Positions 4,196 through 9,838 of a stretch of 57,821 bases of DNA are shown here, one piece after another. The stretch's first letter is position 1. Every line of letters starts with the position of its first letter. The translations under genes and the position numbers were made by a program. Origin of the DNA: a virus (lineage: Duplodnaviria; Caudoviricetes); IMG/VR virus record IMGVR_UViG_3300041402_001073, positions 1 through 57,821 of that record. One strand, 5' to 3'. The notes under the pieces are model-generated. The model did no database searches. It was not told where the DNA came from and worked only from the letters and a program-made list of their open reading frames with translations.

Positions 4196-5632
4196 TTAGT
4201 CAGTTAATGAGATATAGTCCCAACCCCTTGAAGCGCCATTACAAATATACAAACGGTTATTGTCTGTATCTATATACTGCCTACCCCACTCTGAGTCAGC
4301 ATTGCAATCTGCCGCAAGAGGAACTGCTCCTGAATGATTCCCAAATTGAGCAAACATTCCATCAGGCACTACAACTTCATTAGGGTCTACAAAGAGATAG
4401 CTTGTAGTATTATTAAAGTTGTTTATTTTAAATACATCACCAACAGGAGTATCGGAGTCACTTATAGTAAAACCATTCTGCGCTGCATTTAATACTATCT
4501 CAGGACTACCAGGAGAGCTGTTGTTGTAGGCTCCTTGAAGAGTAATCGCAGCCGTAGTGATTGAACCTCCAGCAAAACCAATTCTAGGTCTAGCATCAAT
4601 TATGCTGACAATGTTAGAGTCGTTCTTCTTTACAAGGATTTGGGCTACAGGAACTAGCCCTGAAGTATGTTGGTCTGTAAACGGCCCGAAGTCTATGCCT
4701 GAGTCAATGGCATCTTGAAGGTCTGAGTGTTGAGATTGACAGTGTATTAAGAAAAATCTTACATTACTAAACTCAGCATCCTGTGTACCTCTTGGTGTCA
4801 TCAAAAGAGTGTTGCTGCAATGATAATTATTGTTCTGCATCGCAGTCAAGTCTGTTCCATTGTCATAATTCGTATCATCTAAAAGCAATGTCTCCTCAAC
4901 TATTGTCCACGCACCGCTATCGTGGTAAACATGGAGGCCTGACAGATTAGCAAATGAATCCCAAGTTTGATTCATCCTGTCTGAATCGTATAGCCCTCCA
5001 GCACTAAAATCTAATTGAAGGGCTGTTGAGCTTTCGGTTGTTAATCCTCCTGTTACAAACAAAGCCCCTATAGCTTCTGATAAATATTTCTCATTACGGT
5101 ATCCATCTTCCGCTATCAGGTATCTGTGGTCAAACACACCAAGGTCGGAAATGTCTGACCCTGAACCTGTCTGCCCTACTTTGGCTTGTATTCTGGCAAT
5201 AGGCATAATTGTTCTTTTCTGAGCATTACTAAACTTCCCCTGCTGTTTTACTATGCCAGAGGTTCCTACTCCAATCCATTGCTCACCTTCCCCAACTCCA
5301 AATCCAGGGTCAACTAAGGTGGTAGCCTCAAGTTCATAATGCGCGCCTTGAATATGCACTTCACATTCGGCTATGTCTATCTTGGTAATATCTCCTGAGT
5401 TACGAGTTACTTTACAAGAGGCATCTGATCCTGCTTCATGGGATTCAACGCCAGTGCTAAGTGTTGAGCTTATGACTGCATCATCCCAATTAGTAATAGA
5501 ATCATATCCTATGGTGTTCGCAGTTAAGTCACCATGAAATATACTTCCACTAGGATTATCTGTTCTTTGTGGCCCATCAGCCCAAGCATACCCACCGATG
5601 GACATAAATAGTAAGAATATTAATACGCGCAT
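4196..5632 (-). CDS. Fibre/spike-like virion protein with N-terminal Sec-type signal peptide
   Basis: G/S/T/D-rich beta-type sequence with a TLQGAYNNS fibre-type motif; starts MRVLIFLLFMSIGGYAWA|D; six Cys in the mature part. Confidence 0.55.
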   Translation of the reverse strand: MRVLIFLLFMSIGGYAWADGPQRTDNPSGSIFHGDLTANTIGYDSITNWDDAVISSTLSTGVESHEAGSDASCKVTRNSGDITKIDIAECEVHIQGAHYELEATTLVDPGFGVGEGEQWIGVGTSGIVKQQGKFSNAQKRTIMPIARIQAKVGQTGSGSDISDLGVFDHRYLIAEDGYRNEKYLSEAIGALFVTGGLTTESSTALQLDFSAGGLYDSDRMNQTWDSFANLSGLHVYHDSGAWTIVEETLLLDDTNYDNGTDLTAMQNNNYHCSNTLLMTPRGTQDAEFSNVRFFLIHCQSQHSDLQDAIDSGIDFGPFTDQHTSGLVPVAQILVKKNDSNIVSIIDARPRIGFAGGSITTAAITLQGAYNNSSPGSPEIVLNAAQNGFTISDSDTPVGDVFKINNFNNTTSYLFVDPNEVVVPDGMFAQFGNHSGAVPLAADCNADSEWGRQYIDTDNNRLYICNGASRGWDYISLTD

Positions 5633-5641
5633 AGTATCTCC

Positions 5642-5995
5642 TTACTGATTAAGTATTGCGTCCACTGCTGCTCTATCATCTTCACTGTCCAATGCCTCAT
5701 ATTTCAAATCATTGGCAATTGCTCTATCTTTCCTGGCTTGGCTTAGGTTTTGAAATTGATGCTTAGACCCAGAATAGGTCCTCTTAAGGACATCAAACAT
5801 ATGGGACAAAGCTACTTCCATGTGATATTCTATTGTCTTCCCTGACCTGCTTTCAATATTTGCGACAACGGCACTGGCCGGGGCCGGAGCGTCCCATGTT
5901 ATATCTACTGTCTTGAATGTAAAAGACCCTGAATCTGCATTTGCTATTGTAGCGGTAAAAAGCACACACAATATCACTATTAGTAGTTTTTTCAT
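5642..5995 (-). CDS. Hypothetical protein of the fibre cluster with Sec-type signal peptide
   Basis: MKKLLIVILCVLFTATIANA|D; GGAG RBS upstream. Confidence 0.6.
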   Translation of the reverse strand: MKKLLIVILCVLFTATIANADSGSFTFKTVDITWDAPAPASAVVANIESRSGKTIEYHMEVALSHMFDVLKRTYSGSKHQFQNLSQARKDRAIANDLKYEALDSEDDRAAVDAILNQ

Positions 5996-6016
5996 CTCAT
6001 TATTCTCCTTAATTAA

Positions 6017-6823
6017 TTATTCCCATACCTGCCAATTAGCTCCGTCAGAACATACCTCTACGTTTTCCCCTGAAGTATTCAAGGCACTATAGTTGAGAAA
6101 AGAATTTACTCCATCAGGGCTTAAAGTTTCAGACCCCGCACCCTCTAAAAAACATCTATTCCCAGACGCATTAGTTATCCTGACTGGGTAACATTTACCC
6201 TCTATACCAACTGCCGTAGGTAAATTCAAAGTCACATCATTATCATTTGTTAAGCAATCTATTCTATGGTAAGTAGCGGCCACTGCTACAGTCGCAGATG
6301 ATACATTAATAAAAGGAGTAATTATTGAACCATTAAAAATAGTCCCGGTTGTTGTTATTCTTTGTCCTTCCACAGCACCAGCAATCAAGGAAAGTGCGTC
6401 TTCTGCGGCACGACCTACTCCAGTATCCTCATCGGTATAGCCAAAAACAAAAGGCGTAGTAGACGTAGACCCGCTATAACTTAATCCCCCACCAAAATTT
6501 ACTACTGAAGCAAGTCGAGTCTTAGTAATTTGCCACCTAACAACTCCCTGATTAGTCACTCCAATAGCATTATTACTTATTGCATAAAGCCCTGTATCCC
6601 AATCGCCTCCAATACCTACACTAGGGTCTGCTGCTGTACCGTCACCAACCTCTATACTGTCAGCAGAGATATCACTGAAATTGGCATCACCAGAGTATTC
6701 GCTAAAAACATTCTCGGAAGTTAATACGCCAGTAACTTTTGAAACAGTTGAAACCTCAGCCTGGATGTTGCTGGATGATAGAAGTCCGACAAATACCAGC
6801 CCTAGGATTAGTATCTTTTTCAT
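6017..6823 (-). CDS. Tail/head fibre-like protein with Sec-type signal peptide (start reassigned to 6823)
   Basis: Two fibre repeats (GDGTAADPSVGIGGDWDTGLY; GSTSTTPFVFGYTDEDTGVG) and a C-terminal VTLNLPTAVG...SDGANW domain. ATG 6823 follows the upstream TGA by 1 nt; MKKILILGLVFVGLLSSSNIQA|E. Confidence 0.7.
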   Translation of the reverse strand: MKKILILGLVFVGLLSSSNIQAEVSTVSKVTGVLTSENVFSEYSGDANFSDISADSIEVGDGTAADPSVGIGGDWDTGLYAISNNAIGVTNQGVVRWQITKTRLASVVNFGGGLSYSGSTSTTPFVFGYTDEDTGVGRAAEDALSLIAGAVEGQRITTTGTIFNGSIITPFINVSSATVAVAATYHRIDCLTNDNDVTLNLPTAVGIEGKCYPVRITNASGNRCFLEGAGSETLSPDGVNSFLNYSALNTSGENVEVCSDGANWQVWE

Positions 6824-6824
6824 A

Positions 6825-8641: not shown

Positions 8642-9115
8642 TTACTTTACTTCTCCATATACTGTCATGGCAAACCTGGATATATCTTTCCATACTTCGT
8701 TGCCTTCGTCATCATACGAAAGCTTTCCGGTAACAGATTCCCTTAGGTTATTTACAACTCCTACTGGAACTCTTACTTTTTGACCTCGTTGTATTAAAAA
8801 CGGTGTGCCGTCAGAAGGATCAGTAACAAAAACATCCCCGCCATCAGGTCCGTCATTCTCGGCAATCATGATTTCAAACATGCGCTTCTTGGGCTTATTG
8901 GGTCCCTTGCCTGCAGGGATAACCTTGTCTTTCTTGGCTGGAACCTCATCCTCTGCCGGCTCCTCTTCAATAACTTCCTCTTCGGCCACCTCAGGAGTTT
9001 CTTCCTCGGATACTTCTACTTCTACTACAACTTCCTCGCTCCCAGTAGCCCCTTCTGTAGGCTTCTCAGTCTTTCCGGCCTCGGGCGGTTTAGGCCCTGT
9101 TCCTTTTCTTGCCAT
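8642..9115 (-). CDS. Phage head-module protein with acidic N-terminus
   Basis: DVFV...FLIQRGQKVRVP.GVV..L motif of proteins found after N4-type capsid genes. Confidence 0.55.
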   Translation of the reverse strand: MARKGTGPKPPEAGKTEKPTEGATGSEEVVVEVEVSEEETPEVAEEEVIEEEPAEDEVPAKKDKVIPAGKGPNKPKKRMFEIMIAENDGPDGGDVFVTDPSDGTPFLIQRGQKVRVPVGVVNNLRESVTGKLSYDDEGNEVWKDISRFAMTVYGEVK

Positions 9116-9137
9116 GATATTTCTCCTTGTTTTAATG

Positions 9138-9163
9138 AAAGGGCCCCGAGATTGGGGCCCTTT
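9138..9163 (-). terminator. Intrinsic terminator-like hairpin
   Basis: AAAGGGCCCC-6 nt-GGGGCCCTTT just after the 9167 stop. Confidence 0.65.
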
Positions 9164-9166
9164 AGG

Positions 9167-9838
9167 TTAATCAGATTCTACATACTCCGCAAAGAGTACA
9201 AGTTTACCAGCGGTTATATCGCCTGCAGCGGAACTCAATATTGAGAACGTAAACGCTCTGGCATCGGTTGTCTTCGTAGAGAAGCTGGCTGCAGTCCCAG
9301 TTTGGATTGCTTCGTGATAACCGGCATCCCAGACATCTCCTGAGTCACCACTACTTATCGATGCGAAAGCTGCAATACCTTGTGCATCATCGGTGGGAAG
9401 ACCGATACCCAAAATGGCAGCATCAGAACCACCACTTTCAAAGGCGGTTATAACCTCATACCATGCTCGGGTAATAACGGCATTGTCGGGAAGATCCACA
9501 CCCATATCATAATCTGTATTGTGTGTTCCACCATCTACACCAAAGTCAAAAGTCGCCCTGGCTATCCTGTTCGCATGGAGAGCATCTGCGGTATAAGCAG
9601 ATAGCTTCCCTTCCGTCACAACCAAGGCAGCTATGGTAGTTACACCAGTGCTGGCCACGGTCATGTCTCCAGTCATCCCTGAAAGACTGCCAGCAGCAAC
9701 AGGTATGTCACCCTCAGCCAAGTCAATTATAAGCTGCTTAATAGCCTGTATCTTCGCCTCAACTACTGGCGCGCGATAAGTGGCAGCTAAGACAGCTATA
9801 AAGGCAAAGGCTATGAATATTTTAAAAGATTTCTTCAT
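9167..9838 (-). CDS. Capsid decoration/head-fibre-like protein with Sec-type signal peptide
   Basis: Second gene after the capsid; LPDNAVITRAWYEVITAF...TAGKLVLFAEY resembles spike-base/cement proteins; MKKSFKIFIAFAFIAVLAATYRAPVVEA|K. Confidence 0.6.
   Translation of the reverse strand: MKKSFKIFIAFAFIAVLAATYRAPVVEAKIQAIKQLIIDLAEGDIPVAAGSLSGMTGDMTVASTGVTTIAALVVTEGKLSAYTADALHANRIARATFDFGVDGGTHNTDYDMGVDLPDNAVITRAWYEVITAFESGGSDAAILGIGLPTDDAQGIAAFASISSGDSGDVWDAGYHEAIQTGTAASFSTKTTDARAFTFSILSSAAGDITAGKLVLFAEYVESD

Follow-up and report, generated by a model that had tools for sequence, protein, structure and literature searches.

The assembly of tailed phages is, in the textbook account, wholly cytoplasmic, and the question considered here is why one such phage should carry, in its late region, five genes for appendage-type proteins that begin with Sec-type leaders. 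The genes lie in a 57,821-bp stretch of DNA, referred to below as the window, which is the whole of the IMG/VR virus record IMGVR_UViG_3300041402_001073 (Duplodnaviria; Caudoviricetes). An original prediction, made from the letters of the window, had pointed to these genes, and the five minus-strand open reading frames (ORFs) were found at the coordinates that it gave, with N-termini exactly as it described them. We named them SP1 to SP5, in gene order. Because of the sequence features of the leaders, their conservation and their co-variation, we consider the export of these appendage-type proteins via Sec-type leaders to be well supported.

9167-9838, minus strand: SP1, 223 amino acids (aa), leader MKKSFKIFIAFAFIAVLAATYRAPVVEA, then K
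6825-7235, minus strand: SP2, 136 aa, leader MKSIFIGLLLAVFVSTVAYA, then S
6017-6823, minus strand: SP3, 268 aa, leader MKKILILGLVFVGLLSSSNIQA, then E
5642-5995, minus strand: SP4, 117 aa, leader MKKLLIVILCVLFTATIANA, then D
4196-5632, minus strand: SP5, 478 aa, leader MRVLIFLLFMSIGGYAWA, then D

Leaders and start sites

In all five proteins the n-region has 1-3 Lys or Arg within the first 6 residues, and the uncharged core reaches a best 10-residue Kyte-Doolittle mean of 3.1-3.8. The same mean is <=2.1 for the capsid, adaptor, portal, 156-aa and 157-aa proteins and, as had been claimed for the core structural proteins, neither these five nor the nozzle protein have an N-terminal hydrophobic stretch. 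Cores of 10-14 residues are followed by small-x-small sites in SP2 (AYA-S, the hyphen marking the predicted cut), SP3 (IQA-E), SP4 (ANA-D) and SP5 (AWA-D). For SP1 the cleavage site is ambiguous, being placed at VLA-A (residue 18) by the custom rule described below and at VEA-K (residue 28) by the original prediction. Since, in addition, residues 2-41 form a single helix in its AlphaFold model, SP1 could be a signal anchor rather than carry a cleaved signal peptide. Lipoproteins were ruled out, as the lipobox (Cys at +1) is absent from all five.

A Shine-Dalgarno (SD) motif (GGAGG, AAGGAG or GGGGG) is present 5-10 nt before each leader-including ATG (5/5): taagggaggg for SP1, caaggagg for SP2, GGGGG before the ATG at 6823 for SP3, taaggag for SP4 and taaggag at Met1 of SP5. 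The public gene call for SP5 (P0001, 469 aa) begins at Met10, where there is no SD motif. With the motifs at the leader-including ATGs, starts downstream of the hydrophobic segments, which the original prediction had itself named as a way in which it might fail, are not borne out.

The custom rule, which considers the n-, h- and c-regions, flagged 9 of the 99 ORFs of >=50 aa. Four of these were SP genes, SP3 being missed solely because the ORF list started it at an upstream GTG; the other five were 17981-18664, 31530-32174, 22572-22961, 38074-38385 and a 57-aa ORF within the nozzle gene. Flagged genes were 5/15 from capsid to nozzle versus 4/72 elsewhere (Fisher p = 0.0066), and a run of >=4 flagged among 87 genes occurred in 0.44% of 200,000 permutations: the clustering of leader genes is not what chance gives. 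Away from the block, the flagged ORF 31530-32174 (minus strand) encodes a 214-aa protein with a classic leader (MKKVLLLILLLAPSFVFA, then N) amid replication genes, for which there was no family match.

Families and folds of the mature parts

The mature parts, which the original prediction had likened to decoration, collar and fibre proteins, do belong to appendage-type families, SP5 and SP1 (by fold), SP3 by its fibre modules and SP2 as a small spike partner. The even number of Cys noticed in the two fibre-like proteins was also found (6 in mature SP5, 4 in mature SP3), and mature SP1, SP2 and SP4 have 0 Cys.

In SP5 the signal peptide is followed by some 40 disordered residues; residues ~60-350 form a conserved fibre/receptor-binding domain, and the module at the C-terminus is variable. 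Its AlphaFold model has a mean predicted local distance difference test (pLDDT) value of 67.5, with residues 60-350 mostly >80. In BFVD it gave 51 matches at E <= 0.001 (best 2e-20), mostly to large Caudovirales proteins, several of which are named fibre, receptor-binding protein (RBP), Mtd_N or peptidase S74. In the PDB it matched the phi812 baseplate (9euj_G, 2.7e-5) and, more weakly, the tail fibre of cyanophage A-1(L) (1.3e-2). Its close homologues have 48-62% identity in the central domain and quite different C-terminal modules.

SP3 is fibre-like, with repeat modules and a C-terminal tip domain that are common to leader-less fibre-like proteins; the tip has the 4 Cys, and a weak match was obtained to phrog_28766, tail fiber (E 0.0018). 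SP2 is made of the signal peptide, a 17-residue extension and a small beta-sandwich. Its fold neighbours in the Atlas are jelly-roll carbohydrate-binding (F5/8-C) domains and XepA, with a DUF6385 cluster found by features only (score 0.88). The match to the XepA cluster is weak (template modelling (TM) score in the Atlas 0.57 by query, 0.29 by target), and SP2 has no Pfam match; one of its homologues, P0061, has a DUF6385 match just under the Pfam cut-off.

In SP1, a signal peptide or anchor and a helix up to about residue 41 are followed by a linker and a C-terminal jelly-roll knob (residues ~85-223; model pLDDT 82). The fold matches in the PDB were phage cement proteins, precisely those of GP4 (8h89_J, E 1.4e-5), KHP30 (7dn2_1, 8.5e-5) and Pam1 (7eel_H, 6e-4), and 7dou_4 (1.2e-3), with TM by target of 0.51-0.62; the Atlas gave TM 0.58 to a PF09956 cluster, and TNF-like lectins matched the fold with E about 1e-2. 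No Pfam family, Phage_cement_2 (PF09956) included, matched SP1 at E <= 0.1. Unlike the single-domain PF09956 cement proteins of 125-155 aa, SP1 has about 85 extra N-terminal residues. The knob domain was found in 885 library proteins and, among the 150 matches listed, is nearly always C-terminal, in proteins of 103-922 aa, a distribution that suggests a fibre knob more than a cement protein.

The leader is present on 20/144 rows of a FastTree tree of the SP1 domain, from which rows shorter than 140 aa and three partial matches (P0262, P0273, P0280) were left out. It needed 16 changes on this tree, and the five shuffles shown of the 200 run needed 18-20: it is scattered over the tree of a mobile domain and is uninformative on gain or loss. 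Among the proteins with the SP1 knob behind a leader (set P0154-P0303), some are of 660-780 aa, and exported proteins with a phage-type SP1 knob may be widespread.

SP4 consists of the signal peptide and a 97-aa remainder, and has no Pfam or PHROG match and no relative in IMG/VR. Its C-terminal half weakly resembles an 88-aa early-region ORF at 25489-25755 (minus strand; 27% over 59 residues, E 3.5e-4).

Searches of Pfam and PHROG found no enzyme domain in SP1 to SP5. No relative of SP5 or SP3 was found by single-protein searches in IMG/VR, and no match to PDB sequences had an E value below 0.06, whether the query was the 877-aa protein encoded at the nozzle position or the family profile of SP1 or SP2. 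Two relationships within the region were considered and rejected, that of the 156-aa protein with the SP1 family (hhalign probability 1.6%) and that of SP2 with SP1 (0.2%). A metagenome scan (alignment A2) gave five distant loci, which were left unused, and a scan of a genome collection (alignment A3) gave six leader-less copies in metagenome-assembled genomes (MAGs) of several phyla, and neither a close relative nor a host assignment.

Conservation of leaders and cysteine pairs

For SP2, 204 homologues were found, of which 120 were listed: the 37 closest (leader forms) and 83 short forms. The 37 closest, 134-141 aa in length, belong to the same phage group as the window, since many of them come from 57-62 kb contigs; 36 of the 37 have the leader, the exception being a 97-aa fragment. 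The sequence of these leaders is variable, while their shape and an AYA/AFA/AWA-type site are kept. The remaining 83, of 93-120 aa, start directly with the domain. Our rule flagged 43/120 of the listed matches, and its 7 flags among the 83 short forms were judged false by eye (Thr/Ala/Gly-rich stretches).

In the SP5 family the leader is present in 15/20 aligned members and absent in 5; the alignment took in 20 of the 24 matches, P0021-P0024 being left out as they match the last 11-13% only. For SP3, the leader is found in the closest homologue (P0026, 45%), in P0030 and in the copy at locus L004, and is absent in six more distant relatives. For SP1, the leader and its unusual c-region, YRAP[VI]V[ED]A, are kept in P0154 (77%), in P0262 and in the L096 copy (83% identical). 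The leaders are thus real features, kept in homologues of SP1, SP2, SP3 and SP5. Homologues lacking a leader, for which the original prediction had advised looking, exist as well: they are the more distant relatives, ordinary appendage-type proteins with fibre/receptor-binding folds, a cement-like jelly roll or the role of small partner of tailspike-like proteins.

The Cys residues of two families follow the leader. Among the leader-bearing members of the SP5 family, C73 is Cys in 12/15 and C90 likewise in 12/15, against 0/3 and 3/5 among the leader-less ones; the three leader-bearing members without C73 are also without C90, and two of the three have another pair instead. C272 and C298 are Cys in 11/15 leader-bearing versus 0/5 leader-less members, the 11 forming one clade. 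In the tip domain of SP3, the leader-bearing copies have 4 (window), 4 (P0026) and 2 (L004) Cys, and the four leader-less copies have 0 at those columns. Since Cys pairs covary with the leader in both families, their paired gain and loss fits disulfides, and hence folding outside the cytoplasm. The oxidising compartment proposed originally is consequently favoured for SP5 and SP3, and not for SP1, SP2 and SP4, which have no mature Cys.

Leaders across the block in other phages

It had been proposed beforehand that leader presence be compared across the block; co-variation was seen in at least five phage lineages, including that of the window. The phage at L096 is a close relative (terminase 83%, capsid 82%, SP1 83%). 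It has, after the adaptor, two differing leader-bearing proteins of 298 and 325 aa, the latter with an SP3-like tip, which makes three leader genes in all; next come an 82-aa protein resembling a holin, an endolysin from a different family and a protein 69% identical to the 120-aa membrane protein of the window. L098 has another capsid family, and there the capsid and a 145-aa protein are followed by five consecutive leader genes: one SP1-like, one SP2-like (hhalign 96.5%), two SP3-like and one more. L099, a 60-kb contig, has three consecutive leader genes, for an SP1-like, an SP2-like (hhalign 93.4%) and a 319-aa protein. In L004 (77-kb record G001) SP3-like and SP5-like genes are adjacent, both with leaders. 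SD motifs stand before all the leader starts in L096, L098, L099 and L004.

As a control, we considered the genes near leader-less homologues. Of those near SP1-like genes 0/85 were flagged, and of those near SP2-like genes 1/346, together 1/431, with a stricter rule that also missed the L097, L098 and L099 leaders later curated by eye.

A leader-less sister module

In uncultured podoviruses there is a leader-less spike module, made of a 93-120 aa protein (phrog_16217, DUF6385-like) and, after it, a spike starting with M[SAT]V..N. SP2 and SP3 are homologous to this pair and match it in gene order and in location within the morphogenesis module; they differ from it in that both have leaders, SP2 has the 17-residue extension and the SP3 tip has four extra Cys.

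The short SP2-like gene was found at 77 IMG/VR loci, and 56 copies were recovered by ORF calling. Directly after it there is a same-strand gene in 47/56 cases, and the product of this gene starts with M[SAT]V and a short conserved stretch in 24/47. Six such downstream proteins were scanned: one has a Beta_helix/pectate-lyase domain (6.4e-14), one a GDSL esterase domain (1.7e-7, just under the Pfam cut-off), and the other four no Pfam domain of note. The leader-less pair lies, in several loci, after the capsid and before the adaptor and, in a T7-like locus, at the place of the tail fibre gene. In L085 and L086 a leader-less SP1-like gene and an SP2-like match are a few hundred bases apart, after a probable capsid gene. 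SP1, SP2 and SP3 are thus located where common appendage modules normally lie.

In alignment A5 the very start of leader-less spikes (MSVSTNSSVSG in L042, for example) pairs with the residues predicted to begin mature SP3 (EVSTVSKVTG) and mature P0026 (AVSTNSSVTG). The leader of SP3 was thus attached ahead of a conserved free N-terminus, which cleavage would restore.

Genome and neighbouring genes

The last 264 bases of the record repeat the first 264 (57558-57821 and 1-264) at 94.3% identity, and the 877-aa ORF crosses the junction of the two ends. Because of this repeat and this ORF, the genome was taken as essentially complete and circularly assembled; CheckV gives the record a completeness of 78% and it is classed as linear. 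The imperfect repeat and the ORF across the junction also point to circular assembly of a mixed population.

By its gene content the phage is of podovirus type and temperate, the latter because of an integrase gene. The capsid is of N4-gp56 type, closest to those of Pseudomonas phage Rollin (44%) and Pseudoalteromonas phage vB_Pun_Y3 (41%), and an SU10-type adaptor, a portal and a large terminase were identified. The neighbouring and other relevant genes are the following.

7508-8641, minus strand: head-to-tail adaptor, no leader (Pfam SU10_adaptor, E 1.2e-14)
3939-4184, minus strand: putative holin, 81 aa, one C-terminal membrane span, starting 11 nt after SP5; no family match
3458-3937, minus strand: endolysin, N-acetylmuramoyl-L-alanine amidase (Pfam Amidase_2, E 6.4e-19; PHROG amidase/endolysin)
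3095-3457, minus strand: 120-aa membrane protein, N-terminal span and charged helical tail, assigned from sequence and the homologue in L096
3-2633, minus strand: 877-aa protein, no leader, the nozzle of the original prediction; runs across the joined record ends
17981-18664, minus strand: DUF481 outer-membrane barrel, 227 aa (Pfam 6.8e-9), leader with a lipobox-like LMIAGC or an ASA-G site
46486-47574, plus strand: tyrosine integrase (Phage_integrase, 1.8e-27), in a short plus-strand island

The late genes are all on the minus strand. Their order is terminase, portal, scaffold, capsid (10380-11375), 156-aa protein, SP1, 157-aa protein, adaptor and 87-aa protein, then SP2, SP3, SP4, SP5, the 81-aa membrane protein, the amidase, the 120-aa membrane protein and a 152-aa protein, and finally the 877-aa protein at the nozzle position and proteins of 349, 135, 183, 399 and 1920 aa. 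From the adaptor to the nozzle gene, neighbours overlap or are separated by at most about 20 nt; the widest gaps of the block, 59 and 51 nt, flank the 156-aa gene and SP1. GC across the SP block is 0.41-0.47, like the remaining window. Promoter-like sites numbered 31 (24.6 +/- 5.3 in shuffles) and terminator-like sites 5 (9.3 +/- 3.2 in shuffles); none of either kind brackets the block, and no hairpin was found between SP5 and the 81-aa gene. SP1 to SP5 were ruled out as morons, having no promoter or terminator signals of their own and no odd GC.

The holin-like and amidase genes follow the SP block directly, as originally described. The amidase has no leader and no wall-binding domain, and the 120-aa protein is a putative second holin or inner-membrane spanin-like protein; an ORF with a lipobox (outer-membrane spanin), embedded in or beside its gene, was looked for and not found. 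The next gene, 2633-3091 (minus strand), encodes the 152-aa protein, which matches phrog_1128 (1.2e-28, enoyl-CoA hydratase/carnithine racemase-like) and has no Pfam match. As for the nozzle, its lack of a leader stood, and its name is putative, given from position only: the 877-aa protein had no match in Pfam, PDB sequences or GenBank phages.

Two inserted copies of a domain of about 70 residues (phrog_9998, two stretches) were observed in the adaptor. Tail spike and tail assembly proteins of other phages (tblastn over residues 140-300), SGNH-hydrolase tail proteins and a spike-like gene at L019 contain this domain as well, which might serve for binding or docking on the particle.

We take the host to be diderm, because of the DUF481 barrel gene, the amidase without a wall-binding domain and cultured relatives that infect Gram-negative bacteria (Pseudomonas, Pseudoalteromonas, Stenotrophomonas, Xanthomonas); exported proteins would then reach the periplasm. 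An archaeal host, suggested by the MAG labels on some homologues, was rejected on account of the SD motifs, the peptidoglycan amidase, the DUF481 barrel and these same relatives. A homologue (40%) of the DUF481 gene lies in L004 at 12756-13394, inside a run of exported-protein genes described below, and the two phages with the SP3/SP5 pair (window and L004) also share this barrel protein. Elsewhere in the window, a tRNA-Pro (UGG) gene adjoins an RtcB-type RNA ligase gene (phrog_1075, 6e-125; 18922-20176, minus strand), and the two may be a tRNA repair pair acting against host anticodon nucleases.

Fate of the exported proteins

What happens after export can be read in more than one way. We favour, tentatively, the reading in which the exported proteins attach to cytoplasm-built particles after the holin-like protein opens the inner membrane. 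On this reading each of the five genes would join a Sec-type leader to a protein of the kind that, in other tailed phages, is produced in the cytoplasm as an outer part of the virion: SP1 a knob or cement-like jelly roll, SP2 a small spike partner, SP3 and SP5 fibre/receptor-binding proteins and SP4 an orphan. Late in the infection of a diderm host, Sec would move them to the periplasm, where signal peptidase I would free the mature N-termini (for SP3, the conserved docking motif) and SP3 and SP5 would form disulfides. Meanwhile, in the cytoplasm, capsid, portal, adaptor and nozzle would be assembled and DNA packaged into the particle. The holin-like protein of 81 aa would then open the inner membrane, and the two pools would mix within the intact outer membrane, so that appendages could bind particles before release. 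It is possible, though the evidence falls somewhat short of making it probable, that several tailed-phage lineages build their virions in this way in two compartments, the core in the cytoplasm and the whole outer set exported and added before the outer membrane ruptures. We infer export, cleavage, periplasmic folding, timing and, above all, virion attachment from the genes.

Several observations argue for a virion role. SP1, SP2, SP3 and SP5 have no paralogue without a leader in the window genome, and PHROG and family scans recognised no other fibre or spike gene there. The module appears at the usual place in the late operon, from capsid to adaptor/nozzle, with the docking motif and the partner kept together, and the exchange of C-terminal modules among SP5 relatives is that seen in host-range proteins. 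The idea that the SP proteins are decoys of the phage's own fibres, put forward as an alternative in the original prediction, is weakened, since there is no leader-less paralogue in the genome to mimic.

A serious alternative, to which we give a rather lower probability, is that the proteins are exported and do not join the virion, the fibre and knob modules having been taken over for work in the envelope. They might bind or trim the receptor or its periplasmic precursors, giving superinfection exclusion or keeping progeny from sticking to debris, or they might take part in lysis of the outer layers. In three phages (window, L096 and L004) the block directly precedes holin-like or endolysin genes, which fits either a timing link or a role in lysis or the envelope. 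In Rollin and vB_Pun_Y3 the adaptor adjoins the next tail gene directly, and by comparison with these cultured relatives it looks as if SP2-SP5 and the lysis genes had been inserted after the adaptor, ahead of the nozzle. G001, moreover, has a normal leader-less tail fibre of 1315 aa (phrog_1980, 1.4e-75), to which its SP3/SP5 pair is additional; the pair belongs to a run of some nine leader or lipobox genes (L004 8749-14869; 133, 279, 470, 84, 98, 172, 212, 60 and 104 aa), DUF481 homologue included, between the 1315-aa tail fibre region and the endolysin and partly beyond the latter. An envelope role would also suit the negative search for an outer-membrane spanin in or beside the 120-aa gene, as another outer-membrane disruptor may be needed, the temperate nature of the phage and the established cytoplasmic assembly of tailed phages. 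Finally, SP2 resembles the XepA cluster (Atlas TM 0.57), and XepA is described as exported and absent from particles (PMC6834076). That fold score is, however, weak and comes with no Pfam match, and none of the five proteins has an enzyme domain. With no leader-less copy of the module left, the phage would be without a recognisable receptor-binding protein, and the genes lie at the module's usual place with no promoter or terminator of their own. In SP3 the docking motif is kept exactly at the cleavage site, the small partner is exported too, and SP5 relatives swap C-terminal modules as host-range proteins do.

Besides the position before the lysis genes, the apparent insertion and the arrangement in G001, other points weigh against the attachment of the exported proteins to particles. 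The leaders were called with a crude, home-made n/h/c rule. Since SP1, SP2 and SP4 have no Cys in their predicted mature parts, oxidation cannot be the general reason for export. For the N-terminal part of the leader-less homologues SP5 seems to have no equivalent: these have other N-termini, and its own mature N-terminus is the stretch of about 40 low-confidence residues. The SP2-like protein of L097 has no leader, its SP1-like protein having a leader-like N-terminus; G001, in its whole record, has no SP2-like gene, and its SP3-like copy is without the N-terminal docking motif. SP1, SP2, SP5 and the 877-aa protein had no match in GenBank phages, and no cultured relative carries the SP genes. 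Host binding might be performed by the 349-, 399- and 877-aa proteins, which have no assigned family, and with a CheckV completeness of 78% a fibre gene could be missing from the record.

Less probable by a good deal is that uncleaved signal anchors keep the appendages tethered at the periplasmic side of the inner membrane and release them, with either fate, once the membrane is de-energised or broken at lysis. The long conserved c-region of SP1 (YRAP[VI]V[ED]A in P0154, P0262 and L096), the one helix 2-41 of its model and the two different cleavage sites proposed for it would suit such an anchor, and signal-anchor-release endolysins are established (PMC6116005). SP2-SP5, by contrast, have short cores of 10-14 residues and AYA, IQA, ANA and AWA sites kept across homologues, and cleavage is also favoured by the SP3 mature end, which matches the N-terminus that is free in leader-less spikes. 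That there is no export at all, the hydrophobic N-termini being due to chance, to wrong starts or to hydrophobic helices inside a cytoplasmic virion, is very improbable: the public call of SP5 at Met10 speaks for it, but Met10, unlike the leader-including starts, has no SD motif in front of it, dozens of homologues keep the n-h-c shape despite varying sequence, Cys pairs covary with the leader in two families, and the background of such N-termini around leader-less homologues is 1/431 genes.

Relation to known systems

The nearest working analogue known to us of attachment outside the cytoplasm is g3p of the filamentous (Ff) phages, a virion receptor-binding protein that has a Sec leader, is oxidised in the periplasm and joins the particle outside the cytoplasm. 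The route is alike and there is no sequence relation. The Ff phages have no cytoplasmic capsid and are extruded without lysis, g3p being membrane-anchored until assembly, whereas the core of the window's phage, known here from its genes alone, would be an HK97-type tailed particle built in the cytoplasm.

The cement proteins of GP4, KHP30/KHP40 and Pam1 (PDB 8h89, 7dn2, 7dou, 7eel) have the same jelly roll as the C-terminal 140 residues of SP1, the gene of which lies two genes after the capsid, a further likeness to cement proteins. SP1 is unlike them in its leader and in the helix and linker in front of the domain, and TNF-like lectins match nearly as well.

Phages also export proteins that alter the surface of the infected cell, such as the receptor-blocking lipoproteins Llp of T5 and Cor and the moron outer-membrane proteins Lom and Bor of lambda. 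These are small lipoproteins or barrels encoded by single genes, often with their own promoter, and some lie in late regions; the SP proteins, unlike them, have no lipobox, no promoter or terminator of their own, and fibre modules. The exported late phage proteins known to us are lysis proteins or exclusion factors.

XepA has reportedly figured in a study of non-classical secretion, and we know of no classical leader in it. It resembles SP2 in position and in its beta-sandwich fold, and differs in having a monoderm host, a pentameric dumb-bell shape, no fibre/receptor-binding domains and a Pfam family (PF27453, XepA/YomS lytic-cassette). In Bacillus subtilis prophage PBSX it is a late protein, its gene lying between those of the tail fibre and of holin/amidase (PMC6834076). 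Sec-exported and signal-anchor-release endolysins (fOg44 Lys44, P1 Lyz) cross the inner membrane before lysis and are held until the holin acts (PMC6116005). These endolysins and the spanins are like the SP proteins in being late proteins that go across the inner membrane, with genes beside the holin, and differ in being lysis enzymes or membrane-fusion proteins instead of modules of fibre, knob or receptor-binding type. The portions of the literature searched contained no description of tailed-phage fibre, spike or decoration proteins with a leader.

Significance

A complete fibre/knob module with conserved leaders is present in the window and in at least four other lineages, with leader-less sister modules in many more phages. 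The predicted mature N-termini are directly testable by proteomics and, whichever fate the proteins have, metagenomes can be screened for such phages simply by the presence of the leaders. If the exported parts do attach to the virion, this would be a new assembly route for tailed phages, in which infectious progeny would depend on the Sec, signal peptidase and Dsb functions of the host and the holin would gain a second role as an assembly switch. If they do not join the particle, receptor-binding modules would have been repeatedly turned into exported envelope factors, a new class of phage-host interaction proteins.

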